The notes under the pieces were generated by a model. The model saw nothing but the letters and a program-made list of their open reading frames with translations. It had not been told where the DNA came from and ran no database searches. The position numbers were made by a program, and so were the translations under genes. A stretch of DNA of 64,000 nt from Polyangiales bacterium (GTDB lineage: Bacteria; Myxococcota_A; Polyangia; Polyangiales; Houyiibacteriaceae): positions 1,385,693 to 1,449,692 of the forward strand of contig OZ245758.1 of NCBI GenBank assembly GCA_965227405.1, read 5' to 3'. Positions 2,331 to 23,955 of the stretch are shown here, piece after piece; the stretch's first letter is position 1, and each line of letters starts with the position of its first letter.

Positions 2331-3749
2331 GCACTCACAAACCTCCCCGCGAACCGGCTGAGTCGACTTCGGCTAGACCTGCTTCGCGAGCTCGCGGGAG
2401 CCGCCAACACGCGGGTCGAAGCCGACGAACTCCATGCGCACGTCGTCGGTAACGAAGGCGTCGAAGCACTTGCGACGTTCGGTCGACGCGCGGTGCTCGA
2501 GGGCGACGTGACGTCGTTGAAGTGGGCGCTCGAGCGACAGCAGAGCTTGGGCGTCGATGACACCAATCTTGCCTGGCGCACGACTCGTTTGTGGTGGCAG
2601 CTCGCTACTGGCGCGCCAGACGTCGACGACGCAGTCTCCGCAGAAGCGCTTGCCGTGCAGAAACGCGACGCGTCACGAGTTGTCGAAACCGCCACGTTGC
2701 GGGCGTGGTTTCTGCTGGAGCACGAGGACGAAGCGGCGACAAAGATGGTTCGCCGCGCCTCACGCATGGCGAGTACCGAGAGTCGTCCCCAAGAGGAGTA
2801 CCTTGCGCACACTCTCTTGGCCCGATTGCGGCGCACGGAACTTCGACCGCATCTGGCGCTTCGAATCGTGCGCTCGCTTCAAGAGGTTGCGCCGCCGATC
2901 TGGACACAGTGGTTGGCGTGGGAGTCTGAACTCGCGGGCAACAACGCCAACCTAGGTGTCGTGGCGATCGCGCAAGCGAGTCATCAGCGTACCGCGTTCG
3001 ACCAGGCTCGAAACGCGCTCGCCATGTCGTTTGCTCCCTGGCGCGAAGACGTGGATGCGCTTGTCGGTGCGCTGGACCTTCACGCCGAAGCCAACGATGC
3101 GGTTCAAGCGTGGCGACGTGGCACTCGCCCACATCCCCCGCGCGGCGTGCATTCGGTGTGTCTCGCGCTACCGGACGAAGACTCGACACTCGCCTACGTG
3201 CTGGCACCGGCCAAGGGACCCGCCGGACGCGTGCTTCGCCCGGGGCTTCGACTCGTCGATGTGGACGCTCTCCATCAACTTAAACAAAGCCAGCGCAAAC
3301 GGGGCCGTGTCGAAACCGCTGCGGCAGCACTCGCGCTCCACCCCAAGGGCATGGCCGAAGACGAGCTCTTCAGCGCGGTTTATGGCTTCGACCACGAAGA
3401 GGGTGTGCACGATGGGGTGCTCGACCTCGTCCTGCACCGTCTGCGCAAAGAACTCGGGGAAGACGGCTCGGTCACCCGCACCGCCAGTCGCGTGTCGATG
3501 ACGCATCGTGGGTTGCTCATCCCCGACCCACGGTGTTCGCTCCCCGTCGACAACCGAGTGTTGGCGGAACTCGCACGCAAACGTGCCAGTGCGAACGAAC
3601 TCGCGGCAGCACTCGAGCTACCGCTGAGGACCGTACAGCGCGTCCTCAAGCGTTTGGCGATGGACGGAGCATGCCTCAAAGAGCGTGAAGGTCGCGCCGT
3701 CGTCTACCGCGTCGAAGACACCACGTTCTCCGAGCCCACGCACCACTAG
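2277..3749 (+). CDS. transcriptional regulator with C-terminal OmpR/PhoB-type winged-helix and a terminal wHTH; N-terminal helical domain of unknown function
   Basis: The C-terminal segment ELFSAVYGFDHEE...LDLVLHRLRKEL resembles the OmpR trans_reg_C recognition helix/wing. A further HTH-like LRTVQRVLKRLAMDG sits at the end. The ORF is open from 1779, but the 5' part lies antisense to the kinase, so the start is placed at the first plausible GTG (2277). Start poorly defined. Confidence 0.45.
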   Translation: MSDPFELASLGNFDAAEHALTNLPANRLSRLRLDLLRELAGAANTRVEADELHAHVVGNEGVEALATFGRRAVLEGDVTSLKWALERQQSLGVDDTNLAWRTTRLWWQLATGAPDVDDAVSAEALAVQKRDASRVVETATLRAWFLLEHEDEAATKMVRRASRMASTESRPQEEYLAHTLLARLRRTELRPHLALRIVRSLQEVAPPIWTQWLAWESELAGNNANLGVVAIAQASHQRTAFDQARNALAMSFAPWREDVDALVGALDLHAEANDAVQAWRRGTRPHPPRGVHSVCLALPDEDSTLAYVLAPAKGPAGRVLRPGLRLVDVDALHQLKQSQRKRGRVETAAAALALHPKGMAEDELFSAVYGFDHEEGVHDGVLDLVLHRLRKELGEDGSVTRTASRVSMTHRGLLIPDPRCSLPVDNRVLAELARKRASANELAAALELPLRTVQRVLKRLAMDGACLKEREGRAVVYRVEDTTFSEPTHH

Positions 3750-5407
3750 ACATCATCAAAGCAAACACGACTTGGGGCGCTTCGATCACCGGTGTCGCCG
3801 GTCCCGAGCTGACCTCGTTCGTTGGCTCCCCAACAATACAAGCGCCGTTGCGCGTCGATTGCGCACGTGTGATCGCGATCCACAACAACATTCTGCCAAT
3901 TGCCGGGAACTCGTTGCGGCACAAACGTGCGCTCATCCACCGTCGCTGCGAGCTGTCCCCGCGCGTTGGAACCAAACGTGTACAACTCGCCGGTGACCAA
4001 AAGCACCGCGCTGTGCGACGCGCCCGCGGCCACTTCGAGCGCATCGATCGTGTCGGTAAGTTCGAGCGACTCATACCCCACGATGTCTTCGAACGGTTGC
4101 GCGCACTGACCATCGCGATTGCTTCCCCGACACGCAACTTCGCCGTTCATCCCGAAGTAGCAGGTGTGGCCTTCGCCGGCGGCTAGACCCGGAATCGACG
4201 CGCGCCCTGTGCTTTGAGTCGGTGCACAAATCACGTCGTCTGCGGGGTCGCTGGTGATCTGTCGCAAACTGTTGCTGCCCCAACAGCGCACGATCCCTGA
4301 GAACGCTGCGCACGCATGCGAGGCACCCGCAGACAGGTTTTCGATGCCGACTCCGGAGCGAACGGTCATCGGAGTGTCGCGCGATCCGCTGCAATCGAGT
4401 CCGAGTTGCCCGAGTCGGTCGCTTCCCCAGCAGGAGAGCTCGTCATCCGAGGACACGCACGTAAAGTCATCTCCGGTCGCCACGCGGAGCACATCACCAA
4501 TCTCTGGTTCGACAGGTGCCGGTGCCACGCCACCGTCACGTCCGAGCTGTCCTGCGTCGTCGGATCCCCAACACAGCAGCCGATTCGATTCGTCCACGGC
4601 ACAACCATGGCGGTCGCCAAGATCGATCGCGTTGAAGAGAGGAATCTGGCTCGCCGTGGGAACAAGAACGTCATCGCCAGGTTCGATTCCCAGTTGCCCC
4701 GCGTCGTTTTGTCCCATGCACAACACCTCGCGTTCACCGGACTCGCGGATGACGCGCGCGCACGTAGAGGCACGCCCCGCACCGACCGCATCAACGCGAA
4801 CGGACGAGACACATGCGCCGGCTTCACAGCGATCTCCTGCGCAGGGTCCGCACCGGGTACCGAAAGGCACATCGACACATGCACCCGCCTCGCAGGTTTG
4901 ACACTCGGAGCACGCGTCGCAGGCATCCGGCATATCGGGGCACGCGGCGGCCAAACTGCGTCGATCGACGACGGCGGGGTCCACACGGGTCGAATCGCAC
5001 CGGCCTGCGCCGTCGACGACAGTGCATCCCGAGCCCTCCGGGCAAGCGACATCGATGCAAGCGTCGCGAAAGCGAAGTGGGATCGAGAGCAGCGACCCGT
5101 CGTCAAAACCACCACGCAGCTCCACTCGCGAAAACGTTCCAGCATCGTCGAGCAACTCCGCAACAACTTGAAACCTGCGTGATGCGTCGTTGTCTTGGGG
5201 AACCAGAGGGATGCCTCGTAGCTCCGAAAATTCCGCGTTTGGAACCTCTCGCTCAAGGACGACGCCACCACCGTTATCGAGAACGCGCACACGCAACGCG
5301 GTCGCACGCTCAGCACTCTCTGGACCGAGGTACAGGCACACCACCGTTTGCGTGACCGGTGAGCTGCACGACCAAAGAGTCGCAACGACAACAAGCAAGC
5401 GCGTCAT
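3746..5407 (-). CDS. secreted RCC1 (regulator of chromosome condensation)-repeat beta-propeller protein with Cys-rich N-terminal region
   Basis: Repeated motifs [41 protein letters not shown], typical of RCC1/ATS1 repeats. The start is taken at [16 protein letters not shown] (signal/lipoprotein-like) rather than the upstream Met. Confidence 0.75.
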
Positions 5408-5553
5408 CGAACTGGTGAGCGTGTACCACGATCGCTGCTCAACCGACGGCTCCACACTACGCACAAGCGTAGGCTGCACCCCACGCCGACATCCTCAAAC
5501 CCTTGCAGAACCAGCAAAAACCGCAGGGCCCGTCGCTTGCAAAGGATCTCCCG

Positions 5554-10026: not shown

Positions 10027-10818
10027 ATGTATCCTGGGGGGCCGATGGCGGAGCAGCAGAACTTTCTCAGTTGGTTGCAGAGCCTCGACCGTCCTCGCCC
10101 AGGATTCCGACGAACACGACGTCCGTCGCAGATTCCGAGCGTGCTTTCCGCAGGCCATATTCGTGTGGTCTATCAACCCATCGTCAAGCTGCGGGGACGG
10201 GGAATCTTCGCGTATGAGGCGCTGGTCCGAAGCGACTCTCCCCATTTTGAGAGTCCACCTGCGCTCTTCACCGCAGCGATTCGCGGCCAGTGTTGCGGCG
10301 CGCTCGGACGCGTGATTCGAGAGATCGCGACATCCAACTGTCCGGATTATCCGCTCTTCATCAACATCCATCCCAACGAATTTGATGAAGCGTGGTTGGT
10401 GCAGCCCGACGATCCGATTTTCGAGCACTACCACAACATCTACCTCGAGATTACCGAGTCGGTTCCGCTGAGCCACTTCGCGTTGTGCCACTCCGTGTTG
10501 CGCGAGATTCGTGGCAAGGGTGTGCACGTCGCCATCGATGATCTTGGCGCCGGGTACTCGAATCTGAAGTACATCGCCGACCTCGAACCCGACGTGGTTA
10601 AACTCGATCGAAGTTTGGTGGCTAACGTGCACCGCGAGAAGCGTCTCCAGATGCTGGTGCGTCATATGGTGCGCTTGTGCGATGACCTCGGCGCAATGGT
10701 CGTCGCGGAGGGCGTGGAGAACGGCGATGAACTCGCGGCCGTGATCGACTGCGGTGCGCATCTCGGACAGGGCTACTACTTCGCAAAGCCCAGCTTTCCA
10801 CCACCCATGCCCAAGTGA
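10027..10818 (+). CDS. standalone EAL-domain c-di-GMP phosphodiesterase (all catalytic residues present)
   Basis: YEALVR (EAL motif), NIHPNE, YLEITES, AIDDLGAGYSN, VKLDRSLV, VVAEGVEN, GAHLGQGYYF. An alternative Met lies at 10045. Confidence 0.85.
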   Translation: MYPGGPMAEQQNFLSWLQSLDRPRPGFRRTRRPSQIPSVLSAGHIRVVYQPIVKLRGRGIFAYEALVRSDSPHFESPPALFTAAIRGQCCGALGRVIREIATSNCPDYPLFINIHPNEFDEAWLVQPDDPIFEHYHNIYLEITESVPLSHFALCHSVLREIRGKGVHVAIDDLGAGYSNLKYIADLEPDVVKLDRSLVANVHREKRLQMLVRHMVRLCDDLGAMVVAEGVENGDELAAVIDCGAHLGQGYYFAKPSFPPPMPK

Positions 10819-11576: not shown

Positions 11577-13421
11577 TCAGCCGACCGGATTCACGAGCAC
11601 TTGCGCGCCCTGCGAACCGGTCACCTCGGCAATGCCGGTGACCTTGGGACCGTCTGCGCTCTTGGACACGTGCACGATCACCTGAACCGCGCGTGCCACA
11701 AGCGTGGCTGAAGTCTCAGGCGAGTGGCCGGAGAGCGTCGCCAAGAAGACCAAGGGGAAACCGGGGTCCTGCGTAGGCGCGGAGTTTGCGCCAAGGAAGC
11801 CGCCACCACCGTGGGAAGCCAGCGCTGCGAGAACATCAAACGCCGAAGCGTCTGCGACACCATCGACGAAGAGGTGGTCCACGCGCATGCGCGCGGCTTG
11901 GAGCGCCACCTGACCCACCGACACGCCGTTCGTCCCACCGCTGAGGTGCATGACGTGCGGCAGATCCAGCGTTGCGGTCGCACCACGACTCACGGCTGCA
12001 ACGCGATCACTCGGGTCGAGCAAACTGGCTAGCGACGCGATCAGCTCAGACACCTCCGAACCTTGCGGTCCGACGACCGCGATCGTCTTGTTGTTGGCAA
12101 CAGCCGCGCGCAACACCTGTGCACCGTCGCTCGAGAGCACGCCTCGGGCCACGAACGCATCGATGTTGGGTCCACCGCCACGACGAATCTCAACGATCGG
12201 TCCACCGACAGCAATGGGAGGCAGCATCGCGCTGACCTGACCACCTTGCGGCAACACGCCCTGAAGCATCGCGCCCTTGGGCGACGTGGGACCACGCGAG
12301 CAAAGACGACGCGCGATCACGCTGAGCATCGCAGCCGATGAGAAGTTGGCTTCGGAAGGCACGAGTCCTGCGCCCTTGTCGACGAGAACTTTCGATGGAC
12401 CTTCGACGACGATCTCCTTGATCGACGAGTCGCCGAGCAACGCTTCGAACGCACCCAAGCCCACGGCTTCGCGAAGTGCCGCCGCAGCAAGGTTGGCGTC
12501 GTTGGCATCGACTGCGCCGCCCTTGCCGAGCTCACGCATCACCTCCGCGATTGCTTTCTTCGCCGCGGATTGGCGGGTTTGATCCTGCACGCCGAGCGCG
12601 CTTCCGTCCTCGAGTCCGGGGAACGCGCTCTTCAACGCACCCATGACCGCAGGCAATCCCGTCGGTCCAGGAGCCACGGCGGGCGCAGGCTGCGGTTGTG
12701 CAGGCGAAGGCGATGGCGCGGGTGCACCGCTTCCGACAGAAGGTCGCGGCGCACGCGTCGGCGGCTCAGGCTCACGATCAAGCTGGAACTGATCCTGCGC
12801 TGGCGTAGGTTGAGGTGCGGGCTGCGCTGGCACCGCGGTAGGAGCCGGCGCAGGTTGCGGCTGTGGCGCGGGTTGCGGCGCGGCTTGAGGCTGCGGCGCA
12901 GAAGGAGGCGGACCGATGGGCTGCGGCGCCGGTTGCGGAGCAGCTTGCGGCGGCGGTGCGGCTTGAGGCGGCGGCGCAGCTGCAGGAGGCGGTCCGATCG
13001 GTGCGGGCGCTGCAGGTGCAGGTGCAGAAACCGCAGGTGCAGGCGCAGAAGGAGCAGGCGGAGGACTCGAACGCAGAGGCGGCGGACCAGGCCGCGGCGG
13101 TGCAGCCGCAGCATCCGGGTACGCAGCAGCACCCAAGTCCTCGACGGTCAGAATGAAGTCGCCGATGTAAACCTTGTCACCCGGCTTCACGACGAGCGGC
13201 GAGGTGATCTTGCGTCCGTTGACGTAGGTGCCGTTCGTGCTCTTCAGGTCCACCACAATGAAGCGGCTATCCTTCAGAACGATCCGACTGTGACGCTTGG
13301 AGACGTTTCCCTTCGGGAGAATGATGTCGTTGCCTTGAACGCGGCCAATTGTGACCTCGCTCTTGTCAAACTCCATCCGTCGTTGGGCCCCGCCCTTTTC
13401 GGTGATCACCACTGCGAACAT
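11577..13421 (-). CDS. FHA-domain protein fused to a degenerate CpaF/TadA (VirB11-like) secretion-ATPase domain (predicted pseudo-ATPase), with Pro/Ala/Gln-rich linker
   Basis: N-terminal FHA: TIGRVQGNDIILPKGNVSKRHSRIVL...STNGTYVNG. The C-terminal ~330 aa align to CpaF-like ATPases (SIKEIVVEGPSKVLVDKGAG...; MLPPIAVGGPIVEIRR). The Walker A position reads VVGPQGSEVS instead of GxxGxGKT. The Walker B/Glu box reads HLFVDGVAD. The His box reads HGGGGFLGANSA. Confidence 0.8.
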   Translation of the reverse strand: MFAVVITEKGGAQRRMEFDKSEVTIGRVQGNDIILPKGNVSKRHSRIVLKDSRFIVVDLKSTNGTYVNGRKITSPLVVKPGDKVYIGDFILTVEDLGAAAYPDAAAAPPRPGPPPLRSSPPPAPSAPAPAVSAPAPAAPAPIGPPPAAAPPPQAAPPPQAAPQPAPQPIGPPPSAPQPQAAPQPAPQPQPAPAPTAVPAQPAPQPTPAQDQFQLDREPEPPTRAPRPSVGSGAPAPSPSPAQPQPAPAVAPGPTGLPAVMGALKSAFPGLEDGSALGVQDQTRQSAAKKAIAEVMRELGKGGAVDANDANLAAAALREAVGLGAFEALLGDSSIKEIVVEGPSKVLVDKGAGLVPSEANFSSAAMLSVIARRLCSRGPTSPKGAMLQGVLPQGGQVSAMLPPIAVGGPIVEIRRGGGPNIDAFVARGVLSSDGAQVLRAAVANNKTIAVVGPQGSEVSELIASLASLLDPSDRVAAVSRGATATLDLPHVMHLSGGTNGVSVGQVALQAARMRVDHLFVDGVADASAFDVLAALASHGGGGFLGANSAPTQDPGFPLVFLATLSGHSPETSATLVARAVQVIVHVSKSADGPKVTGIAEVTGSQGAQVLVNPVG

Positions 13422-13551: not shown

Positions 13552-16386
13552 TTACTCGACCAGCCGAAGCCCGGGCGGGAGGCTGTCGCCGAAAATTCGG
13601 CGTTCATCGGCCTCGCTCAGCACCTGAACCGAGCGAACCATCTCGACCCAGGTGTCTGGATGTCCTGCATGGGCCAGGCGATCGGCAACCTGGCCCCGTA
13701 GACCTTCGTCGAGATCCCGCTCTCGATCACCACTACACCGAGCGAGCAGAGTTGCGGCAAACGCGGCTGGTGCGGCATCGCGCCAATCGAACGTGAGGGC
13801 GAGTTCCAGCCACTGGACAGCCACGTGACGCGGCACCACCCGGTGTGCACTTCCGTAGAAAGGCACACGCGCGCCAAGCCGTCCCACAGCCCACCACGAC
13901 TGCACGTTCTCGTCGTGCTTGTCGAGACGCGTAACCAACCACCCACCAACCTGCGCCTTGCGATCAGGTTCCAGGTGTTCGAGTGCACCCGCGAGACGAA
14001 CCATGGCGTCGTACCCCTGCATCTTGGGACCTGCGGGACGCTTGCGCGGCTTCTTCGTCGGAGGGTGAAGGTAGTACTCGAGCTGCGCCATCAGCGAACT
14101 CTGACTCTTGGGTGTGAGTCCGCCTGCGATGCGGCGCCACATCGTCCAGAACTCCGACCAGTTCTGAGCCTCGGGCGCAAACTGTACGCCGCCCTTCATG
14201 ACCCCTTCGACGATCTGCTTGGTGCGCCACTCGTCCAGTGGATATCCAAACCCAGGTCGCAGCGTGTAGCCGACCAAGTTGAACCAGACGCGTTCGTGAT
14301 CTGCAGACCGTCGCCGACGCTTCATTCCGGCGTGCAGTGCACCAAAGAGTTCGCGCAGCAGAGGCGTTTGCCAACCGTCACGCGGTCCGAGCACCTTTTC
14401 GATGTCAGGCCGCAGTCGTTTCACGTCGCGTTGAGAGATGTCGTTTTTGCCTTTGCTCTTGCCGTAGACCAGCTTCACGCGATCGGTCGCTTCGGCAAAG
14501 CGCGGGTGCAACTGTGTGACGCGTTGAGCCGCAACAGCGTCTGCCGACTTGCCCCGCAGCTGGAGCTCCAACTTCCAGCGTTGCTGCGACTGTTCGGCGT
14601 GCACGCAACTCATCTCGAGCGTGCCCACTTCCGTGAGTGCGCTCGAAAGCGTCACGGGCACTTCTTTTTCGTCGGACGAGTCGCTGCTCGCATCGTCGAG
14701 AACCGCCGCGATCGGCGGAAGATCCCGATAGCGTTCCGCGTCTTCGACTTCGACGATTTCGCCGGGTCGCACATGCTTCACATCGCTGGTTGTGGCCACG
14801 AGGTGAAAGCGAACGGGGCGACCGAGGCGCAACGAGAACGTGCGATCTTTGAGCGGGATCTCTTCCCCTTCTTCGGAGCCGCGCGGAAGAATGCAAACAC
14901 CGCGTCGTTGTGAGGGCACGAGCGATTGACCGCGTGGTTTCTCGCCAGCGTCGACGATCAAATAGTAGCTGCGTGCCGATCCACCGCCGATGCGCAGACC
15001 CAATCCACGTCGAGCAAGACCGTACGCGACCGCGCCCTTCGCAACAGCTTGATCGGGGGCATCGTTGTCCAAGCGTCGGACTTCCGCACCACGCCACCCC
15101 GTCATGACCGAGCGCATACGTTCGCGAAGCAACGCGCTGTTGAACACACCACCGTTGAACAGGACAGCATCGGGAATGTCGCCTGCGATGCCTTCACCAC
15201 GTTCGTCTTGGGTTCCCAGAGCTTCGCGACACAAGTCGGTGTGACTCGCCAGAAACGCCGCGACATGTCGCGAGACTCCGGCATCGGCCACGTAGGGAAG
15301 TCCGAACTCCACGATGCCGCTTCTTCGCCGTTGGGGTGTGGCGTCGGCTCCGACTTCGGGAAAGAACCCTTCGAGCACCAGCTTGTGCACCGCGTCGCGT
15401 TTGACCGAAACCGATTGTGAGCCGCCAATGAGTTTGGATCCCGCGCCGAGAACTGTGACCCGGACTTCGTCGGGTGCGTCGGGTGCGAGCAGGCGTTCTT
15501 TGGCTTGACGACACTGTTGAACCAGCTGTGTGAACCGGGCTGCGCCCAAGTTCTTTCCGAGTTCTTGCTCTGCGGTTTTGGCGAGCGCGAGATCCATGTT
15601 GTCGCCGCCGAGCATCAAGTGATCGCCAACCGCGATGCGAGTGATGCGCGGACCGCTTTCGCGTAGTTCGATCTTGATCAGCGTGAGGTCGGTGGTACCG
15701 CCGCCAACATCGACCACGAGTGCGAGTCGAACGCTTCCGAGAGCGTGGTCGAGTTCGTCACGGTTGCGATCGAGCCACGCGTAGAATGCAGCTTGGGGTT
15801 CTTCGACCAGGCGGACTTTGAGCCCAGCGTCTTTGGCTGCGCGAAGCGTGAGACCTCGAGCCGCTTCGTCGAACGATGCAGGAACTGTCAGCACCACGTC
15901 TTGCGTGGACATCGGGTTGTCGGGGAAGCGTGCGTCCCATGCGGCGCGGACGTGCGCGAGGTAGGAGGCGGACGCGTCGACCGGCGACACCTTTTCGACT
16001 TCGTCGGGAGCGCCCCAGGGGAGGATGTTGGCCGTTCGATCGACCGCGCCGTGACTGAGCCAACTCTTGGCGGACGCCACCAGCCGCCCGGGTGTTTTGG
16101 TGCCCAGTTCGAGCGCGAGTTCACCGAGAACTGGCTGTCCTTCAGACGGCGCTGCCCATGGGAGCGCGAGCTGAGCGGGTGGGATTTCTCCGGGAGACGC
16201 GTGGTAGCGGACCGAAGGAAGCAGAGGTTTGGCCGCCACTTGGCCGGGCGCGATGAGCTGTTCGACCTCGAAGGATTGGATGTCGGGCGGCGCGTCAGGA
16301 GACGACGCCTTGGTGTCGGCGTAAGCGACCACGGTGTGGGTCGTGCCGAGATCGATGCCAACGAGGTAACGAGAGGCGACAGCCAT
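13552..16386 (-). CDS. atypical large Hsp70-family (DnaK-like actin-fold ATPase) protein with ~450-aa C-terminal extension
   Basis: Hsp70 motifs: VGIDLGTTHTVVAY, DVVLTVPASFDEAARGLT, LVEEPQAAFYAW, LVVDVGGGTTDLTLIKI. The C-terminal half has no recognized domain. Paralogous to the ORF at 21555-23366. Confidence 0.85.
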   Translation of the reverse strand: MAVASRYLVGIDLGTTHTVVAYADTKASSPDAPPDIQSFEVEQLIAPGQVAAKPLLPSVRYHASPGEIPPAQLALPWAAPSEGQPVLGELALELGTKTPGRLVASAKSWLSHGAVDRTANILPWGAPDEVEKVSPVDASASYLAHVRAAWDARFPDNPMSTQDVVLTVPASFDEAARGLTLRAAKDAGLKVRLVEEPQAAFYAWLDRNRDELDHALGSVRLALVVDVGGGTTDLTLIKIELRESGPRITRIAVGDHLMLGGDNMDLALAKTAEQELGKNLGAARFTQLVQQCRQAKERLLAPDAPDEVRVTVLGAGSKLIGGSQSVSVKRDAVHKLVLEGFFPEVGADATPQRRRSGIVEFGLPYVADAGVSRHVAAFLASHTDLCREALGTQDERGEGIAGDIPDAVLFNGGVFNSALLRERMRSVMTGWRGAEVRRLDNDAPDQAVAKGAVAYGLARRGLGLRIGGGSARSYYLIVDAGEKPRGQSLVPSQRRGVCILPRGSEEGEEIPLKDRTFSLRLGRPVRFHLVATTSDVKHVRPGEIVEVEDAERYRDLPPIAAVLDDASSDSSDEKEVPVTLSSALTEVGTLEMSCVHAEQSQQRWKLELQLRGKSADAVAAQRVTQLHPRFAEATDRVKLVYGKSKGKNDISQRDVKRLRPDIEKVLGPRDGWQTPLLRELFGALHAGMKRRRRSADHERVWFNLVGYTLRPGFGYPLDEWRTKQIVEGVMKGGVQFAPEAQNWSEFWTMWRRIAGGLTPKSQSSLMAQLEYYLHPPTKKPRKRPAGPKMQGYDAMVRLAGALEHLEPDRKAQVGGWLVTRLDKHDENVQSWWAVGRLGARVPFYGSAHRVVPRHVAVQWLELALTFDWRDAAPAAFAATLLARCSGDRERDLDEGLRGQVADRLAHAGHPDTWVEMVRSVQVLSEADERRIFGDSLPPGLRLVE

Positions 16387-16636: not shown

Positions 16637-16888
16637 CTATTCCTCTTCAGAAGACGGTGTATTCGGCGTCAACCCGGCTGACGCGGGGCCCTTCGCCAAA
16701 ACCTCACGCAGCAACTCATTGAGCTCTGCCAGGAGCTCGTTCTGTTTCTTGGCCGTTTTGACCTGTTGACGCATCAGCTTCATCGCAGTGTCTTGTTTCC
16801 GAGACAGGGTGCGGATGCGAAGCATCGCGAACGTTGCAACGAGCGCCAGGAGGATCGCCCCCACAGAAAGAATCGCCTGGTTCTCCAT
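16637..16888 (-). CDS. possible small membrane protein (one TM helix plus amphipathic coiled-coil tail)
   Basis: MLGAMENQAILSVGAILLALVATFAML followed by KLMRQQVKTAKKQNELLAELNELLREVL. The start overlaps the CrtI-like ORF start at a CCATGG palindrome. Existence uncertain. Confidence 0.3.
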   Translation of the reverse strand: MENQAILSVGAILLALVATFAMLRIRTLSRKQDTAMKLMRQQVKTAKKQNELLAELNELLREVLAKGPASAGLTPNTPSSEEE

Positions 16889-18497
16889 GGCGCCGAGCAT
16901 ACTTGAAGCGCCCCTGGGTTGCCTCCAGAGTTCCAGGACACCCATCTTGATCTCATCGAAAACACACACGTTCTTGCCAACGGGCCGACTGATCCGTCCT
17001 GAAGACCGGCGCTCGGTTGCGCCGAACGCGCCACATGCAGTTGTCATCGGTGCTGGGTTCGGAGGGCTCGCCGCAGCAATCCGACTCAGCGTACGTGGCT
17101 ACCGTGTGACGGTTGTCGATAGATTGAGTCAGCCGGGTGGACGCGCTCGTGTACATCGAATCGACGGTTACACGTTCGACGCGGGGCCAACCTTGGTCAC
17201 CGCTCCATTTTTGTTCGAAGAACTCTGGGCACTGTGTGGCGAAGACCTGCACACGAGTGTGGATCTCCGACCAACCGAACCCTTCTACCGGATTCGATTC
17301 GACGACGGCGAGAGCTTCGAATACAGCGGCGACCTTGAGCGCATGCGAGCCGAGATCTCTCGCATTTCGCCACGCGATCTGGCGGGCTACGACGCATTTC
17401 TCGAGAAGAGCCGGGAAATCTACGAGGTCGGTTTTGAGCGACTCGGCCACACACCCTTCGGTCGACTGACTGATATGGCGCGAGTCGCTCCGGCGATGAT
17501 CTCGCTGGACAGCCATCTTTCGGTGCACCAACTGGTCGCACGATACATCCGCAACGAAAAGTTGCGGCAGGTTCTGAGTTTTCACCCGCTTTTGGTCGGT
17601 GGGAATCCGTACCAAACGACCAGTATTTATACGTTGATTGCCTATCTTGAACGTCGATGGGGAGTTTGGTTTCCCATGGGCGGTACGGGGAAACTCGTCG
17701 ATGGGATGGTCGCGTTGTTGCGCCGTCGCGGCGTTCGATTTCTGCAGGACACCCATGTTTCCGAGGTCGTTATCGTCGATGGATCGGCAACGGGAATCCG
17801 TCTCGAAGATGGGTCTGTCATCGACTCCGACATCGTGGTCAGCAACGCAGACTCCGCATGGATGTACCGGCATATGGTTCCATCGCAGTGGCGCAAACGC
17901 TGGACCAATCATCGCATCGACAACGCTGCGTACTCGATGAGCCTATTCGTCTGGTACTTCGGAACCTCGCATCAGTACGAAGATGTTGCGCACCACACGA
18001 TCATCCTTGGGCCCCGGTATCGCGGTTTGCTCAACGATATTTTCAAGCATCAACGGCTTCCTGACGACTTTAGCCTGTATCTGCACCGGCCAACTGCGAC
18101 CGACGCTTCGATGGCGCCACGTGGCTGCGATGCCTTTTACGTGCTCGCACCAGTCCCGCACCTCGATGCGTCCGTCGACTGGAACCAAGCGCAAGAACAC
18201 TACAGGACACGCATCGAACGGCATCTTGAAGCAACCGTGCTGCCGCGGTTGCGCTCACGTCTCACAGTCAGCAAATGCTTGAACCCCATCGGGTTTCGAG
18301 ATGACTACGCGTCGCTGAAAGGCGCGGCATTCGGTTTGCAACCTCAGTTGCTCCAGAGCGCTTACTTCCGTCCTCACAACCAGAGTGAGGACATCCAGAA
18401 TCTGTACCTGGTCGGGGCAGGCACCCATCCGGGAGCAGGGCTTCCCGGAGTCCTCAGCACCGCGCGAGTCCTCGATTCGATCGTGCCCGATCCGTAG
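16887..18497 (+). CDS. phytoene desaturase-family FAD-dependent oxidoreductase (CrtI/CrtD-like)
   Basis: Rossmann dinucleotide-binding motif VVIGAGFGGLAAAIRL...DRLSQPGGRA. The C-terminus GAGTHPGAGLPGVLSTARV is typical of the CrtI family. The true start may be the TTG at 16974. The ORF is open from 16788. Confidence 0.8.
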   Translation: MAPSILEAPLGCLQSSRTPILISSKTHTFLPTGRLIRPEDRRSVAPNAPHAVVIGAGFGGLAAAIRLSVRGYRVTVVDRLSQPGGRARVHRIDGYTFDAGPTLVTAPFLFEELWALCGEDLHTSVDLRPTEPFYRIRFDDGESFEYSGDLERMRAEISRISPRDLAGYDAFLEKSREIYEVGFERLGHTPFGRLTDMARVAPAMISLDSHLSVHQLVARYIRNEKLRQVLSFHPLLVGGNPYQTTSIYTLIAYLERRWGVWFPMGGTGKLVDGMVALLRRRGVRFLQDTHVSEVVIVDGSATGIRLEDGSVIDSDIVVSNADSAWMYRHMVPSQWRKRWTNHRIDNAAYSMSLFVWYFGTSHQYEDVAHHTIILGPRYRGLLNDIFKHQRLPDDFSLYLHRPTATDASMAPRGCDAFYVLAPVPHLDASVDWNQAQEHYRTRIERHLEATVLPRLRSRLTVSKCLNPIGFRDDYASLKGAAFGLQPQLLQSAYFRPHNQSEDIQNLYLVGAGTHPGAGLPGVLSTARVLDSIVPDP

Positions 18498-18578: not shown

Positions 18579-19529
18579 ATGACTCGCGCACGCTCCGAAT
18601 CCTACGACCTCGATTCAACCCCTTTCTACCACTGCATTTCGAGATGCGTACGCCGCGCATGGCTTTGCGGCCGCGACCCGTACACAGGACAAGACTTCGA
18701 ACACAGGAAAGACTGGATCGAAGAGCGTCTCTTCTTTCTCGCGGAGATCTTTGCCATCCAACTTTTTGCGTACGCGGTCATGTCCAACCACCTCCATATC
18801 GTGGTGCGAGTCGATCGCGCGTTGGCTCTGTCCTGGACCGACGAGGAGGTGGTCGAGCGCTACACGAGACTCTTCAAAAACTCCAAAGCGCGTCTGGATC
18901 CGCTGCCGAGTCACGCACGCAAGTCGCTGATCGCGTTGTGGCGCGAACGCCTTCACGATCTGTCTTGGATGATGCGCACGCTCAACGAGCACATTGCTCG
19001 GCGCGCCAACAAAGAAGACAACTGCACCGGCCGCTTCTGGGAGGGTCGCTTCAAGTCTCAACCGCTTCTCGATGAAACTGCGGTGCTCACATGCATGGCA
19101 TACGTCGACCTCAACGTCGTTCGGGCGGGCGAGGTTGAGTCGCTCGACGAAGCAATGCACACCTCGATCACGCGGCGGTTGAAATCGGCTCCGAGTGCGC
19201 CGCGCGGCCTCGCACCGTTCGAGGATCAAACTGGGAAGTCAGACATTGCGGTGCCCATGCATTTCCGCGACTACGTCGAGGTTCTCGAGTGGACGGGCCG
19301 GTGCTCACGCGCGTATGGACCCGGTGCACGCTTGCGCGGAAAACCGCCACAGCTTCTCACACAGCACAGTCTTGATTCGTCGACTTGGCTCGACACCATG
19401 CAAAGCCACGGTCTCTCCAAGCTTACCGCGCTGGGATCGACCTCAGAGATTGCCTCGTTTGCGACAAAGAAAGGTCGCACGTGGATCCGAGGAGCGGGTC
19501 TCGCCCGTGCTCGGACCTACCCTCGGTGA
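18579..19529 (+). CDS. HUH-family Y1 tyrosine transposase-like protein (IS200/IS605 TnpA-related long form, COG1943-like)
   Basis: HuH motif SNHLHIVV and the catalytic-Tyr region MAYVDLNVVRAGEV (YxxxNxVRAG). Also TGRFWEGRF. About 316 aa, so longer than minimal TnpA. No obvious terminal hairpins identified. Confidence 0.65.
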   Translation: MTRARSESYDLDSTPFYHCISRCVRRAWLCGRDPYTGQDFEHRKDWIEERLFFLAEIFAIQLFAYAVMSNHLHIVVRVDRALALSWTDEEVVERYTRLFKNSKARLDPLPSHARKSLIALWRERLHDLSWMMRTLNEHIARRANKEDNCTGRFWEGRFKSQPLLDETAVLTCMAYVDLNVVRAGEVESLDEAMHTSITRRLKSAPSAPRGLAPFEDQTGKSDIAVPMHFRDYVEVLEWTGRCSRAYGPGARLRGKPPQLLTQHSLDSSTWLDTMQSHGLSKLTALGSTSEIASFATKKGRTWIRGAGLARARTYPR

Positions 19530-20044: not shown

Positions 20045-20719
20045 TCAGAAACCTCGACCGAGCGTCTCGATTCGCACGACCCGGCCATCTTCAAACGTCA
20101 CACGGCGCATGAAACGAAGCGGACCGAAGTTGTACACCCACGTTTCGACTTGAACGGCGCGTTGGGCGGTCTGCACGACCCCCTCTACAGGCGCAACCGT
20201 CACGCCTGTTTGAACAACACGCGAGTTTTGCTCAGTTGGCTCACCCCAAGTTGCCCGGACGCGGGATGGTGAGTGTCCCAATCTCACGTCGTACGCTCGT
20301 GTGCCCAGTTGATCAGGCGGAAAGCCGCGACCCAACGTTTCAACGGTGTTCACCACCCCATCCTGAAACTCAATGCGGACCATGAAACGCTGGGGTCCAA
20401 AGTTGAGTGTCCACGTCTCGATGGTCGAGGTCACACTCCTGCTGAAGATGGCACCGAACTGCGCCTGATGGATTGTTCGCTGGTCGACGCGGACAGCCAC
20501 ATCAACGGGATCTCCGCAGCGCGCACGCACCTCTGCTTGGGTGTCTCCTCGATCGATCAAGTGGGTTCCGCATCGAAGAGCGCTCGCCTCGGCTTGAAAA
20601 ATGAACGAGGCCGCAAGCGCTGCCAGCGCTGCGGCGAGTTTGATGGGTGTCCTTGGGCTAAGCCGCATCATTCCTGAACGATGAACTCCCTCTCGCCTCG
20701 GGACAACGAGGGGATCCAC
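20045..20719 (-). CDS. secreted protein with two tandem ~85-aa repeats (DUF2845-like)
   Basis: Signal peptide AALAALAASFIFQAEA. Repeat units end IETWTLNFGPQRFMVRIEFQDGVVNTVETLGRGF and VETWVYNFGPLRFMRRVTFEDGRVVRIETLGRGF. Confidence 0.6.
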   Translation of the reverse strand: MDPLVVPRREGVHRSGMMRLSPRTPIKLAAALAALAASFIFQAEASALRCGTHLIDRGDTQAEVRARCGDPVDVAVRVDQRTIHQAQFGAIFSRSVTSTIETWTLNFGPQRFMVRIEFQDGVVNTVETLGRGFPPDQLGTRAYDVRLGHSPSRVRATWGEPTEQNSRVVQTGVTVAPVEGVVQTAQRAVQVETWVYNFGPLRFMRRVTFEDGRVVRIETLGRGF

Positions 20720-20723
20720 CTGT

Positions 20724-21551
20724 TCACGTCATGGCCAACCGCATTTCATCGGCGCTCTGATACCGCTCGGTCGGATTCTTGCGAATCGCCTTCATGACCA
20801 CGCGATCCACGCGTGGATCCAACGACGGTCGGACAGTCGAGGGTGGAGGCGGAAAATCCTCCAAGATGGTGCGAAACACCTCTTCCACAGGTCCCTCAAC
20901 GGGCGGAAACGCACGCTGCCCAGTCAGCAGTTCGTAGGCCAAAACGCCGGCGCCATACACATCCGTCCTCGCATCGACGGGATCTGCAAGGATCTGCTCG
21001 GGAGACATATAACTGGGTGTCCCGAGAGCTTCCTGCGGCTTGGTGAGCGTGGTGGTCGGGGTCAGTCGGTCCAGATCCTTGCTCAAACCAAAGTCGATCA
21101 CCTTCACAACACCTTCACTTGTGATGAAGACGTTTGATGGCTTGAGATCCCGATGAACCACGCCCCCGTCGTGGGCGGCCTGCACACCACGAAGCACCGA
21201 AACGATGATCTTGCGTGTCCTGGGAACCAACATCGGCCCTTCTCGCAAGGTGGCCAATAGGGTGTCCCCCACCAGCAGCTCCATCACGAGAAACGGGGTC
21301 TGGTCCACCACGCCTGCATCGTAGGTTTCGACGACGTTCGGGTGCTTCACCTGCGCGGCCAACCGAGCCTCACGGACAAAACGCCGATGCAGGGTGTCTG
21401 TGTTCAGGTGTTCAGCCAGAACCTTCACAGCCACCGGTCGGCCAAGATGGGTGTCCCAGGCTCGATGAACCACCGACATCCCGCCTTTGGCGAGGACCTT
21501 TTCCAGCCGGTAACGGTCAAGCAAGACTTCGCCTGCGCTAAACCGGCTCAC
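20724..21551 (-). CDS. Hanks-type Ser/Thr protein kinase, catalytic domain only (275 aa)
   Basis: LAKGGMSVVHRA, AVKVL, HRDLKPSNVF, DFGLSK, GTPSYMSPEQ. Four bp downstream of the Hsp70-like gene, so probably an operon. Confidence 0.85.
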   Translation of the reverse strand: MSRFSAGEVLLDRYRLEKVLAKGGMSVVHRAWDTHLGRPVAVKVLAEHLNTDTLHRRFVREARLAAQVKHPNVVETYDAGVVDQTPFLVMELLVGDTLLATLREGPMLVPRTRKIIVSVLRGVQAAHDGGVVHRDLKPSNVFITSEGVVKVIDFGLSKDLDRLTPTTTLTKPQEALGTPSYMSPEQILADPVDARTDVYGAGVLAYELLTGQRAFPPVEGPVEEVFRTILEDFPPPPSTVRPSLDPRVDRVVMKAIRKNPTERYQSADEMRLAMT

Positions 21552-21554
21552 GCT

Positions 21555-23366
21555 TCACTCTCGTACGTCGAGTTCGACTTTCCATACGTGCTCACCCCCA
21601 CGACTGAGGGCTTCGAGCACAAGAGTACCTAACTCCGACACTCGACCGCGAAGACGAACGGGAACCACTTCACCAGGCGAGTTCCCCTCCGTTGGCAATG
21701 TGGCCTCAATCTGCCCCAACTCCACGAGTTCGTCGTCGTTCCACCGCTCGAGCAACGCGCCTGTGTCGTCGTCCCTTCGCACGGACGAACCAAAGAATCG
21801 AAACCGCACGGGCTCCCCAACGACCAAACCCAGTTCCTGCGGCGGTGCTTGCGAGGCACTGCCCTCTTCCAACCCAAAGGGTGCAACACACAGCGCGTGA
21901 ATCGGTGGCTCGATCCCCGGAACGGCGGGAGCTGCTGTCTCCACACCCACATAAAACGCCTGCGCCATTCCTCCACGAATGCGCACTCCGCCACCCTGTC
22001 GAACGTACCCGTAATACGCCGCACCACGCGCCACGGCACCATCCAGATCAGCGCCCTCAAGCACGCGTGCAGCCGGTGCGCCATCGCTTTCCAACCACTT
22101 TGTGATCAACGCCTCCACACGCTTTGCGATCACCGGTGCCTTGAACACACCACCGTTGAACAGGATCGCAGTCGGATGCAGAAACGCGGCGTCTGGTGAC
22201 ACATCAAACAGGTCCGCGGTTGCATTCACCTGTCGGCTCAAGAACGCAGCGAGGTGACGCGTGATCGCCGCATCCTGCGCGTACGGAAGCCCCAACTGGG
22301 TCAACGCACTTCGCGCACGCGTCTTCGGCTTCGAGTCCACGCCCACATCCGGGAAGAAACCCTCCAACACAACGGCTTCCACATCTGCGCGCGTCAACTC
22401 CGTGCGCAACGAACCACCGATCAACTTGCTGCCTCGGCTGGGCACCACAATCGGAACGCTGTCCGCCTTCCCGGCCAACAAGATCTCTTTCGCGCTTCGG
22501 CAGCTCTGCGTGATCGCGCGTACCTGCCAGTCATCGAGCTTCTTGCCCTCGGCTTCGAGCTTCGCTTTCACGGTGTAGCCCAAGGCGAGATCCATGTTGT
22601 CGCCGCCGAGCAAAATGTGGTCGCCCACGGCAACCCGTTCCAACTGCAGCGCACCCTCACTCTCGTGCACCGCAATCAGCGAGAGGTCGGTGGTTCCACC
22701 ACCCACATCAACCACAAGAATCACGTCGCCGACGTTCAGCTTGTCGCGCCACTCACCTCGGGTCTGTTGAATCCACGCGTAGAGCGCAGCTTGGGGCTCT
22801 TCGAGAAGCGTCAGGTTCGCGTACCCAGCTTTTTGGGCAGCCTCCGCCGTCAGTTCGCGCGCCGCGGGGTCGAACGACGCGGGAACCGTCAGCACGACCT
22901 CTTGATCCGCAAAGGGTTCCCCGGAATTCGCATGGTCCCAAGCCGCTTTGAGGTGCGCGAGGTACTGCACCGAAGCATCCAACGGGCTTAGCCGCGTGAC
23001 GTCGTCCGGTGCATCTGTCGGTAGGATCGGACCACGACGGTCGACCGCCGTATGACCCAGCCAGGACTTCGCGCTCGCAACCAAACGAATGGGTGTCTTG
23101 GCGCCAAGCACTCGCGCCAACTCGCCCACGACGTACGAGGGTGTCGCGTTCCACGGCAAGCTCGATGCACCACGGGCGAGTTCCGTGTCGTGTGGAAGAT
23201 AGAGAAAGCTTGGCAGCAACGTGCGCCGCTCCACTTCCGCTGGAGCGATCGCTTGATCGATTCCAAACGGTTGAAGCGCGACCTCTTCGCCTTCACTCAG
23301 ATCCAAATCCAACGCAGACAACGCACAGTGCGTCGTTCCAAGGTCGACACCGAGTACGAACGTCAC
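21555..23366 (-). CDS. Hsp70-family (DnaK-like) ATPase-fold protein, paralog of 13552-16386
   Basis: VLGVDLGTTHCALS, QEVVLTVPASFDPAARELT, LLEEPQAALYAW, ILVVDVGGGTTDLSLIAV. The start is taken at GTG 23366 (V47 of the longer ORF), which overlaps the upstream gene. Confidence 0.8.
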   Translation of the reverse strand: MTFVLGVDLGTTHCALSALDLDLSEGEEVALQPFGIDQAIAPAEVERRTLLPSFLYLPHDTELARGASSLPWNATPSYVVGELARVLGAKTPIRLVASAKSWLGHTAVDRRGPILPTDAPDDVTRLSPLDASVQYLAHLKAAWDHANSGEPFADQEVVLTVPASFDPAARELTAEAAQKAGYANLTLLEEPQAALYAWIQQTRGEWRDKLNVGDVILVVDVGGGTTDLSLIAVHESEGALQLERVAVGDHILLGGDNMDLALGYTVKAKLEAEGKKLDDWQVRAITQSCRSAKEILLAGKADSVPIVVPSRGSKLIGGSLRTELTRADVEAVVLEGFFPDVGVDSKPKTRARSALTQLGLPYAQDAAITRHLAAFLSRQVNATADLFDVSPDAAFLHPTAILFNGGVFKAPVIAKRVEALITKWLESDGAPAARVLEGADLDGAVARGAAYYGYVRQGGGVRIRGGMAQAFYVGVETAAPAVPGIEPPIHALCVAPFGLEEGSASQAPPQELGLVVGEPVRFRFFGSSVRRDDDTGALLERWNDDELVELGQIEATLPTEGNSPGEVVPVRLRGRVSELGTLVLEALSRGGEHVWKVELDVRE

Positions 23367-23379
23367 AACTGCACCGCGA

Positions 23380-23955
23380 TCAAAGCTCGACCTCAGCGGG
23401 CGCGACCACCGACAAGTCGTGCCCCGCAGCAACTTTCGGCAAGCGCACCTCCGCAATCTTCCAACCGCGATGTTGCAACGTTCCCTTGAACGGCGGCTCG
23501 CCAACCACGTTTCCGGTCACGCGAACCTCGGTCGCGTCGAATCCCTTCGGGAGCTCCACCGACGTTCCCTCTTCCTCAGACCGCACGGGTGTAACGTCAA
23601 AGTGCTCGGCCAGCGCTTTCTTGCACCCTTCGTGCACGACGCGTGCAGCAGCGCCAATGTCGGAGTCGGAAAACGCAGACACGTCTTCTTCCAAAAAGTC
23701 GATGAACCGACCTTCGCGTTGCAAGAGACCAAGCAGTTGAAGCGCAGCATCGGGTGTCGCTTCCACGACGGGAGGCGGTTCGGGTTCAGGCTCTGGCTCG
23801 GGCTCAGGGGCCGGCAATGCAGGCTCGCCCTGCATGAGCTGTCTCACAGAGGCACCCAGGTCCGCTGAGAACAGAACGCGTAGTGCGAGGCCAAAACGCG
23901 CGAAGAAGGAAGGCTTCCGTTCCAATGCTCGTAACTCCTGGCGCGGCTGTAGCAC
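23380..23955 (-). CDS. DUF2760-like protein (Hsp70-associated small protein)
   Basis: About 190 aa with an N-terminal hydrophobic FFARFGLALRVLF, a PEPEPEPEPEPP linker, and a conserved C-terminal domain (LQREGRFIDFLEEDV...GNVVGEPPFKGTLQHRGWK). Sits directly upstream of the Hsp70-like gene. The family assignment is from memory of the DUF2760 context. Confidence 0.5.
   Translation of the reverse strand: MLQPRQELRALERKPSFFARFGLALRVLFSADLGASVRQLMQGEPALPAPEPEPEPEPEPPPVVEATPDAALQLLGLLQREGRFIDFLEEDVSAFSDSDIGAAARVVHEGCKKALAEHFDVTPVRSEEEGTSVELPKGFDATEVRVTGNVVGEPPFKGTLQHRGWKIAEVRLPKVAAGHDLSVVAPAEVEL

Follow-up and report, generated by a model that had tools for sequence, protein, structure and literature searches.

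The gene examined here lies on the reverse strand of the window, by which is meant the whole stretch of 64 kb that was analysed and to which all positions refer. It encodes an FHA domain, a long linker that is presumed to be disordered and a degenerate CpaF/KilF-like body (Table 1). The reading frame is intact over 614 amino acids, and the N-terminus of the protein, MFAVVITEKGGAQRR, agrees with the consensus of its family, so that the start codon can be taken as correct. A preliminary description of this DNA had recognized a canonical FHA domain at the N-terminus, a Pro/Ala/Gln linker and a C-terminal part homologous to CpaF-type ATPases. All the peptides quoted in it were found in the 614-residue ORF and their coordinates were verified; the linker, of about 175 residues, was likewise borne out, as were the two domains that it joins. 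Around the gene no sigma-70-like promoter was found, and the six terminator-like sites detected there do not exceed the number in shuffled sequence (mean 4.7).

Table 1. Features of the target gene and of its surroundings, with positions in the window
Feature	Positions	Strand	Basis or remark
Whole gene, FHA + disordered linker + degenerate CpaF/KilF-like body	11577..13421	-	614 aa, ATG start
FHA domain, aa 1-95 (Pfam match aa 23-87)	13137..13421	-	Pfam E 6.4e-18
Pro/Ala/Gln-rich linker, aa 96-270, presumed disordered	12612..13136	-	63 Pro, 44 Ala and 16 Gln in 175 residues
Conserved linear motif RPGPPPLRSSPPPAP, aa 110-124, inside linker	13050..13094	-	linker comparison
Conserved linker island EPEPPTRAP, aa 217-225	12747..12773	-	linker comparison
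CpaF-like body, three-helix bundle + N-terminal domain + RecA-like C-terminal domain (predicted), aa 271-614	11580..12611	-	AF2, Foldseek, phmmer
N-terminal-domain arginine-finger region, both fingers lost (D215/R217/R223 to Q387/V389/Q395)	12231..12269	-	alignment to CpaF
Degenerate Walker A VVGPQGSEVS (G282P, G286E, K287V, T288S)	12048..12077	-	alignment
Degenerate Asp box VAAVSRGATA (E308S, D309R, E312T)	11973..12002	-	alignment
Retained trans finger R511 (CpaF R347), then degenerate Walker B HLFVDGVAD (E357G, R359A)	11850..11894	-	alignment
Degenerate His box HGGGGFLGANSA (H382N)	11778..11813	-	alignment
Atypical Hsp70 directly upstream of target, NBD + beta-sandwich + DUF3731 helical domain, 944 aa	13552..16386	-	domain scan
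Bare Ser/Thr kinase inside Hsp70 module, kinase domain only, 275 aa	20724..21551	-	Pfam scan
Second Hsp70-like gene of module	21555..23504	-	true start probably downstream of listed TTG
DUF2760, first gene of module	23380..23955	-	E 1e-55
Pkinase ORF	909-2330	-	Pfam scan
Pkinase ORF	24797-26458	+	Pfam scan
Pkinase ORF	45384-46988	-	Pfam scan

The Gly-Arg, Ser-x-x-His and Asn-Gly residues of FHA domains form their phosphothreonine-binding signature. In the target they are present as G26-R27, S41-x-x-H44 and N63-G64, and judged by these residues the signature is intact. The Pfam FHA profile (PF00498) was matched end to end (profile positions 1-67 of 67), and the domain resembles the GarA/OdhI structures with an E-value of about 1e-9. 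Compared with a 90% ortholog the 95 codons of the domain show no amino-acid change at a dS of 0.68, and it is almost without variation across 78 family members. Its identity is 68-77% to canonical secretin-linked members and 85-98% among the degenerate ones. Such near-invariance points to a single, tightly constrained phospho-ligand common to many paralogues, which could be a myxobacterial Ser/Thr-kinase signalling hub.

The linker itself shows a dN/dS of 0.10 in comparison with the related locus L053. Thr222, inside the conserved island EPEPPTRAP, may be considered a candidate phospho-acceptor. Of the 168 family linkers 39 contain the motif PPP[LMIV]R, and all 39 fall within the Lys-to-Val clade described below. 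A correlation between the PPPLR motif of the linker and adjacency to Hsp70 genes was sought and none was found.

Residues 305-609 of the body align to the solved CpaF of C. crescentus with an E-value of 6e-25 (phmmer, PDB). The NCBIfam TadA-family model TIGR03819 was matched with an E-value of 5.5e-35 and 121 bits for a cutoff of 373, and Pfam T2SSE (PF00437) reached 19.1 bits where the gathering score is 24.9. Since both scores lie too low, the body is a homologue of these ATPases but falls outside the family as the curated cutoffs define it. Structure prediction, which the preliminary description had proposed as a check, returned the CpaF fold: the AF2 model of residues 271-614 has a pLDDT of 93.5 and a pTM of 0.87, and in Foldseek its best match was CpaF (8rkd/8rjf, E 7e-30, TM 0.73-0.76), the top matches being CpaF, FlaI, archaeal GspE and VirB11. 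According to this model the CpaF/FlaI-type fold, with its three-helix bundle, N-terminal domain and RecA-like domain, is kept in the body.

The residues that handle the nucleotide are largely gone. In a residue-by-residue alignment, 11 of the 13 experimentally defined nucleotide-handling residues of CpaF are replaced in the target. The substitutions (CpaF numbering) are D215Q, R217V, R223Q, G282P, G286E, K287V and T288S, together with E308S, D309R, E312T, E357G, R359A and H382N; G284 and the trans arginine finger R347, which corresponds to R511 of the target, are all that is retained. The Walker A pattern GxxGxGK[ST] is replaced by GPQGSEVS, so that a glutamate (G286E) occupies the P-loop. The roles lost are those of the Walker-A Lys and Thr, the Mg-coordinating Glu of the Asp box, the catalytic Glu of Walker B and the His of the His box (roles as described for CpaF in PMC12019362 and PMC11300603); in CpaF the single substitution K287A abolishes ATPase activity (PMC12019362). 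The preliminary description had stated that every nucleotide-handling motif was mutated. The alignment agrees with it, and the loss is wider than was stated, that of both arginine fingers of the N-terminal domain being an addition to its list.

These losses are not peculiar to one genome. The target is a member of a large family of orphan paralogues in Myxococcota in which the Walker-A Lys is changed to Val: among the nearest 150 clusters (50% identity) the K287 position is Val in 71 and another non-Lys residue in 15. Within the family the loss of motifs is conserved and comes in grades. The wider Val-287 tier conserves the P-loop glycine pattern GxxGxGVT[ST], the Thr, E312D, the Walker-B Asp and the His, and in the clade of the target the replacement motifs are themselves conserved (HGGGGF in the His box, and VDGV). 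R347 is kept in 7 of the 10 members of this clade and in 53 of the 86 other Val-287 members. In a rough NJ tree the canonical FHA-CpaF members (L006, L013 and L016-L019) form a short-branched clade which is sister to the degenerate paralogues. In public databases the latter are named 'pilus assembly protein CpaF', 'Flp pilus assembly complex ATPase TadA' or 'T2SS/T4P/T4SS family ATPase'.

The same substitutions were found in independent assemblies (P0001-P0009), and the survey of orthologs that the preliminary description had suggested found the degeneration to be common to them. Of the two outcomes which by that description would have refuted its reading, a lack of significant profile similarity and intact Walker motifs in the orthologs, neither was thus obtained. 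The dN/dS of the body is 0.079 against the 90% ortholog at a dS of 1.0, a value which approaches saturation, and over the body it lies at 0.08-0.2. Given that the orthologs carry the loss as well and that dN/dS of the body is 0.08, the loss is neither sequencing error nor decay. With catalytic residues lost group-wide, purifying selection and a fold that is predicted to be kept, the body has the characteristics of a pseudoenzyme.

The surroundings of the gene were compared with those of its relatives. Among about 50 ORFs scanned in the window no Tad, T2SS or T4SS Pfam family was found, and no secretin, prepilin peptidase or Flp pilin was matched by tblastn, although very small pilin genes may escape such a search. 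The absence of secretion partners and the presence of four Hanks kinases in the window, both reported in the preliminary description, were thus reproduced, the former with very small pilins set aside and the latter as four Pkinase ORFs. Kil-like clusters are the setting of the canonical relatives (L006, L013, L016-L019), where a secretin, a prepilin peptidase, an Flp pilin and a multi-FHA protein accompany them. The target and its clade are outside kil clusters, with neither a KilC secretin nor a KilD-like multi-FHA protein adjoining, and no kil or tad gene was found near the approximately 20 degenerate relatives examined.

Directly upstream of the target is a different set of genes, in the order DUF2760-Hsp70-(kinase)-Hsp70/DUF3731, and the 130-bp gap between Hsp70/DUF3731 and the target is without a predicted terminator. 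This adjacency was missed in the preliminary description. Hsp70/DUF3731 was found directly upstream and on the same strand at seven loci (the window, L053, L001, L054, L056, L010 and L022), with bodies 33-90% identical to that of the target. Indirectly, 12 further cases in which a contig of equal length, in some of them of 6-22 kb, stands both in the list of matches for the FHA gene and in that for Hsp70/DUF3731 point in the same direction. The bare kinase is inside the module at the four nearest loci, in the same position in L001, L054 and L056, and this place within the module marks it out among the four kinases as a particular candidate for a partner of the target. The CrtI-family oxidoreductase (desaturase, 16788-18497) was considered as an insertion splitting the module and rejected: it occupies that position in L053, L054 and L056 as well and is therefore a regular neighbour. 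A Y1-transposase-like ORF (18579-19529) is the only one there that looks specific to the window.

The pairing has clear limits. It is absent in L003 and L055, whose bodies are about 50% identical, and also in L004, L005, L009, L011, L012, L014 and L015. Surveyed from the Hsp70 side, the FHA gene was directly downstream in only 2 of 60 metagenome loci, which led us to reject the pairing as a general rule and to regard it as lineage-specific. The kinase was present in none of those loci, and no alternative gene recurred downstream of Hsp70/DUF3731. Part of the adjacency among close relatives could be no more than inherited synteny, as genes for EAL, Lnt and a response regulator are syntenic too. 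The fold of DUF3731 gave only weak matches, to the beta-sandwich of the Hsp70 SBD and to ARM/HEAT-like solenoids, and a literature search on DUF3731 and DUF2760 returned no papers. A gene for Hsp70/DUF3731 is also present in Sandaracinus amylolyticus (AKF11056.1), and M. xanthus has an Hsp70 of 925 amino acids, MXAN_5323 (PMC8265645). Two known systems were tried and rejected for this module. The stk locus of M. xanthus, which contains the Hsp70-like EPS regulator StkA, differs in StkB and StkC, an SCP2-like protein and a protein of 89 amino acids respectively (PMC4319316). An anti-phage defence system was discarded as PADLOC gave no match for the target, DUF2760 or DUF2845, its Hsp70 matches being marginal only and its kinase matches those of a generic kinase domain.

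A dead copy of the motor, away from pilus genes and behind an Hsp70 gene, is most likely a signalling adaptor, and for the target we infer that a phospho-dependent adaptor role is the most likely function. We consider it rather probable that the protein is a pseudo-ATPase paralogue of KilF/CpaF through which the activity of a kinase is linked to the two Hsp70s. A Thr either on a partner or on the linker of the target itself (where Thr222 is the candidate) would be phosphorylated by a Hanks kinase, for which the bare one of the module is the most plausible choice, and the FHA domain, on its flexible tether of about 175 residues, would capture this mark. Whether it forms a ring or stays monomeric, the dead CpaF-like body would then be a docking platform instead of a motor. 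Kinase signalling might thereby be coupled to the two Hsp70s, of which the target may be an adaptor, a regulator or a client. The idea of a scaffold and not a motor fits the conserved loss together with the strong purifying selection (dN/dS 0.08). The broader proposal, that the Val-287 family of Myxococcota as a whole was repurposed as pThr-gated adaptors or co-factors of a two-Hsp70 machine, with the mark set by the kinase of the module, seems to us unlikely.

Other explanations can be given for the same observations. That the gene has no function, being a pseudogene in decay or a product of faulty assembly or sequencing, might be thought from the mutation of all the catalytic motifs and from a T2SSE score under the gathering threshold; this is refuted by the intact frame of 614 residues, the identical substitutions in independent assemblies (P0001-P0009), the body dN/dS of 0.08-0.2 beside an invariant FHA domain, the high-confidence predicted fold and a family of dozens of 50%-identity clusters. 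It is also quite improbable, and more so than the reading taken up in the next paragraph, that the target still binds a nucleotide or another phosphate ligand at a non-canonical site and works as a switch rather than as a pure scaffold. The conservation of GxxGxGVT[ST], the Thr, E312D, the Walker-B Asp and the His hints at a constrained pocket in the wider Val-287 tier, but the clade of the target has undergone G286E, T288S, E312T, E357G and H382N and has lost both N-terminal-domain arginines. Moreover K287A alone kills the ATPase activity of CpaF (PMC12019362), and from general P-loop chemistry a Glu in the P-loop should repel phosphate.

A doubtful but more substantial possibility is that the target regulates the Kil/Tad machine, by competing with active KilF for one phospho-epitope or for the inner-membrane platform, or by entering mixed rings in which R511 is still offered to an adjoining active site. 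Ancestry and architecture are common with KilF (PMC8460266; NJ tree), and the FHA identities (68-77% to canonical, 85-98% among degenerate members) suggest a common or similar ligand. Moreover, of the nucleotide-site residues only R347 and one other are retained in the target, the cis residues being lost. Retention of R347 is however moderate (7/10; 53/86), and it could equally stabilise the interface of a homo-oligomer. Furthermore, no kil or tad gene lies near the degenerate members examined (about 20), and Hsp70/DUF3731 is their only recurrent neighbour.

Dozens of Myxococcota clusters are thus named as CpaF, TadA or T2SS/T4P/T4SS ATPases while being without the catalytic Lys and most of the active-site residues. 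Counting these degenerate members as Tad/Kil motors inflates the predation or adhesion capacity inferred in metagenome surveys. The searchable literature yielded no account of a PilT/VirB11-family motor protein that has lost its catalysis, and a conserved one would show how the scaffold of a hexameric motor comes to be reused in signalling. The adjacency to Hsp70 in addition offers a starting point for working out what the DUF2760-Hsp70-Hsp70/DUF3731 module, widespread but unstudied, does. If true, the reading with two Hsp70s would be a previously undescribed coupling of a ring derived from a secretion motor to a chaperone system.

The target is matched best, in sequence (E 6e-25) as in structure, by the CpaF of C. 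crescentus, whose body has the same domain organisation. The N-terminus of this CpaF is however short and disordered, whereas the target has an FHA domain and a long linker, and its Walker A and B motifs, Asp box, His box and three arginine fingers are intact (PMC12019362, PMC11300603) where those of the target are degenerate. Unlike the target, it is encoded in the cpa pilus operon. The fusion of FHA to CpaF as such is already known from KilF (MXAN_3107), the ATPase of the Kil (Tad-like) predation machine of M. xanthus, a contact-dependent killing apparatus (PMC8460266); this protein, of the same phylum as the target, has the same FHA domain and CpaF-type body. The precedent was absent from the preliminary description. 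KilF-type proteins are motors required for pilus polymerisation (PMC12075869). As aligned for the canonical secretin-linked homologues they keep all 13 nucleotide-handling residues, 11 of which are lost in the target; with the catalytic set absent, the target does not, by its residues, appear to be an active pilus motor. KilF-type genes also adjoin a secretin, whereas the target has no Tad/Kil neighbours and stands behind Hsp70/DUF3731. An analogy of Kil proteins with Fha1 has been raised before (PMC8460266). Although in Fha1, of the threonine-phosphorylation pathway of the P. aeruginosa T6SS, and in GarA/OdhI the FHA domain is not joined to an ATPase-derived body, these proteins, adaptors under the control of Hanks kinases, have in common with the target a canonical FHA reader of phosphothreonine and a kinase encoded in the vicinity.

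The target gene is a genuine ORF with an ATG start and a 614-aa product, whose N-terminus fits the consensus of 78 relatives, and the start codon is therefore correct. The canonical FHA domain reported in the preliminary description was recognized by Pfam, and its signature residues G26-R27, S41-x-x-H44 and N63-G64 are kept at checked coordinates. In the C-terminal part T2SSE stays below threshold in Pfam (19.1 bits, gathering score 24.9), and the NCBIfam TadA-family model TIGR03819 matches with an E value of 5.5e-35 at a score far under its equivalog cutoff. With phmmer, the solved CpaF of C. crescentus aligns with aa 305-609 (E 6e-25). Moreover, the AlphaFold2 model of aa 271-614 (pLDDT 93.5, pTM 0.87) has CpaF structures 8rkd/8rjf as its top Foldseek matches (E 7e-30, TM 0.73-0.76), followed by FlaI and then by archaeal GspE and VirB11. 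Taken together these searches establish that the C-terminal ~340 aa are homologous to CpaF-type ATPases, as had been proposed, and every peptide cited for that proposal was located in the protein.

Two cryo-EM papers describe the nucleotide-handling residues of CpaF as D215, R217, R223, the P-loop G282-G286, K287, T288, E312, the trans arginine finger R347, E357, R359 and H382, and report that K287A abolishes ATPase activity (PMC12019362, PMC11300603). By alignment, D215, R217 and R223 correspond to Q387, V389 and Q395 of the target, the P-loop to P452, G454, E456, V457 (K287) and S458 (T288), and E312, R347, E357, R359 and H382 to T482, R511, G521, A523 and N546. Eleven of the 13 residues are thus substituted, the sole survivors being G284 and the trans finger (R511), and the Asp-box residues E308 and D309 are also lost (S478 and R479). 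The reported loss of nucleotide-handling motifs was borne out, and the degeneration is fuller than stated there because both N-terminal-domain arginine fingers are missing too.

The closest relatives (P0001-P0009 and P0054), from independent assemblies and with bodies 46-90% identical to the target, carry the same or equivalent substitutions, which rules out sequencing error. New conserved motifs such as HGGGGF and VDGV, common to the target and its closest relatives, replace the old ones. Nei-Gojobori estimates against the 90% ortholog at locus L053 gave a dN/dS of 0.079 for the body (dS ~1.0) and 0.10 for the linker, and in the FHA domain none of the 95 codons has an amino-acid substitution (dS 0.68). 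The gene is kept by selection, and a pseudogene in decay is excluded. In the alignment of the 78 relatives, ~60 columns of the FHA domain show conservation of at least 90%, and the bodies are just 23-40% identical to the target beyond its own clade; the best local identities in the homology search (85-98%) stem from the FHA domain only. Judging from this sequence pattern, many paralogues would read one tightly constrained phospho-ligand. The linker is a long, fast-evolving Pro/Ala/Gln tether with two conserved islands (see table), of which RPGPPPLRSSPPPAP is preserved in loci L003 and L055 though at a shifted position. Of 168 family linkers, 39 contain the motif PPP[LMIV]R, every one of them in the clade with Val in place of the Walker-A Lys.

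Coordinates of features in the window
Feature	Position	Strand	Remark
Target gene	11577-13421	-	FHA-CpaF-like
FHA domain	aa 23-87	-	Pfam, profile covered end to end, E 6.4e-18
RPGPPPLRSSPPPAP island	13050-13094 (aa 110-124)	-	conserved within linker
EPEPPTRAP island	12747-12773 (aa 217-225)	-	conserved Thr222
Hsp70/DUF3731 gene	13552-16386	-	module core; also in L057-L136
Second Hsp70 gene	21555-23504	-	module core; also in 45 of the 80 loci L057-L136
DUF2760 gene	23380-23955	-	module core; also in 40 of the 80 loci L057-L136
Bare Ser/Thr kinase	20724-21551	-	275 aa
Y1-transposase-like ORF	18579-19529	+	316 aa
DUF2845 gene	20045-20719
EAL-domain protein	10027-10818	+	stand-alone, 263 aa
RCC1-repeat protein, MopE-type metal-binding repeats, Kelch repeats, FGE-sulfatase domains	3746-5479, 27446-30067, 47012-48886, 62684-63997

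At E <= 1e-10 the search for homologues gave 851 proteins, almost all of them FHA plus CpaF-like and from Myxococcota (Sandaracinaceae, Polyangiales, Kofleriaceae, Nannocystaceae, Sorangium and Bradymonadia). Their motif states are graded from fully canonical, through a state with Walker A and B intact and the His box absent and a large third tier with GxGVT[ST], VDDVRG and the His kept, to the clade of the target with all motifs gone. When 1.84 billion cluster representatives were searched exhaustively, 72 clusters matched at E <= 1e-30. Among the 150 nearest clusters, the Walker-A Lys is replaced by Val in 71 (45 of these with a family-type FHA, the remainder being mostly fragments) and by another residue in 15; 53 are fully canonical. 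Canonical members (L006, L013, L016-L019) adjoin a secretin, a prepilin peptidase, a Flp pilin and a multi-FHA protein, that is, a Kil-like cluster, and degenerate members stand as orphans with unrelated genes around them. In a rough NJ tree the secretin-linked canonical proteins are short-branched and sister to several long-branched degenerate clades, and the target falls in the Lys-to-Val clade. At thirteen further loci (L020, L023-L027, L029, L031, L034, L035, L038, L040 and L050) the FHA-CpaF-like gene directly precedes a multi-FHA (KilD-like) gene and the secretin is absent within the flank; some of these members have intact Walker A/B, e.g. the Bradymonadia type GSGK[ST]...LDECRG...TLHG. 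This third class of context suggests KilF-KilD-like pairs separated from the pilus machinery. A T3SS-type ATPase gene (ATP-synt_ab + T3SS_ATPase_C; L004, 17774-19114, -) lies ~6 kb from a degenerate FHA-CpaF-like gene, a single occurrence in a Sandaracinaceae MAG.

The absence of Tad/T2SS/T4SS partners was upheld among the ~50 scanned window ORFs, tblastn with secretin, peptidase and Flp being negative, and the ORF scan also recovered the four kinases previously counted. The proposed survey of conserved neighbours found one that recurs. The gene immediately upstream of the target, on the same strand, encodes an atypical Hsp70 of 944 aa, and no terminator is predicted in the 130 bp that separate the two. 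This Hsp70 is composed of an NBD, a beta-sandwich and a helical DUF3731 domain, predicted as a ~300-aa helical solenoid that replaces the usual lid. The same gene arrangement is found in L053 (90%), L001 (69%), L054 (63%) and L056 (~46%) and in the far more distant L010 (36%) and L022 (33%), and 12 same-sized contigs in both homologue lists (some 6-22 kb) suggest further cases. This adjacency is the only recurrent linkage found for the FHA-CpaF-like family. The module, from 23955 to 11577, reads DUF2760, Hsp70, bare kinase, CrtI-family oxidoreductase (other strand), Hsp70/DUF3731 and FHA-CpaF-like gene. The bare kinase, a kinase domain without sensor or membrane segment, holds the same position between the two Hsp70 genes in L001, L054 and L056.

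DUF2760-Hsp70-Hsp70/DUF3731 is a widespread three-gene core. At least 566 of the 600 pattern matches listed from metagenome contigs were confirmed as relatives of the long Hsp70; in the 80 loci kept, the paralogous Hsp70 is directly upstream in 45 and DUF2760 is present in 40. The FHA gene is directly downstream in 2 of 60 informative loci, and from this rarity its association with Hsp70 is lineage-specific and may in part go back to inherited synteny. No other gene recurs downstream in the metagenome loci, and the bare kinase was found in none of the 60 informative loci and does not occur in any of the 80 more distant Hsp70/DUF3731 loci. The Y1-transposase-like ORF inside the module (weak IS200-like match, E 7e-5, at the gathering threshold) was not seen in orthologous loci and may, with the DUF2845 gene, be a window-specific insertion. 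The EAL gene lies beside the target in the window, L001, L053, L054 and L056, on the opposite strand and convergent except in L053, which may be plain synteny or hint at c-di-GMP involvement. Many eukaryote-like and repeat proteins in the window (see table) are typical of large myxobacterial genomes; the contig is 9.07 Mb.

The target is a CpaF fold lacking its nucleotide site, with an intact and invariant FHA domain, detached from pilus genes. We infer that it is a phosphothreonine-dependent adaptor: the FHA domain would be recruited by a mark that a kinase writes, and the dead motor body would serve as a docking surface, most likely within the setting of the Hsp70 pair. The chief alternative is that the protein regulates the Kil/Tad machine, either as a decoy or as a subunit of mixed rings, which the shared FHA domain and the retained trans finger R511 would fit; genomic support for it is absent. 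Residual ligand binding is conceivable in the GxGVT[ST] tier and unlikely in the target's clade.

The adaptor reading, in which the function is deduced, would connect a recycled motor scaffold with signalling by Ser/Thr kinases and with a chaperone module that is unstudied, a link open to testing. Degenerate proteins carry 'CpaF' or 'TadA' labels in public sources, a widespread mis-annotation that is corrected here. Our literature search brought up no report of a conserved PilT/VirB11-family paralogue that is catalytically dead, no account of the Val-287 family and none of the DUF2760/DUF3731 Hsp70 module, neither DUF being mentioned in any paper found. The components are known, namely FHA adaptors, the pseudoenzyme concept and the FHA-CpaF fusion. 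KilF of M. xanthus (mxan_3107), the motor protein of the Tad-like Kil killing apparatus, is a hexameric ATPase with an N-terminal FHA fusion (Seef et al., PMC8460266) and is needed for Kil pilus polymerisation (PMC12075869); KilF and the target share an N-terminal FHA domain and a CpaF-type body, and the fusion was thus already known.
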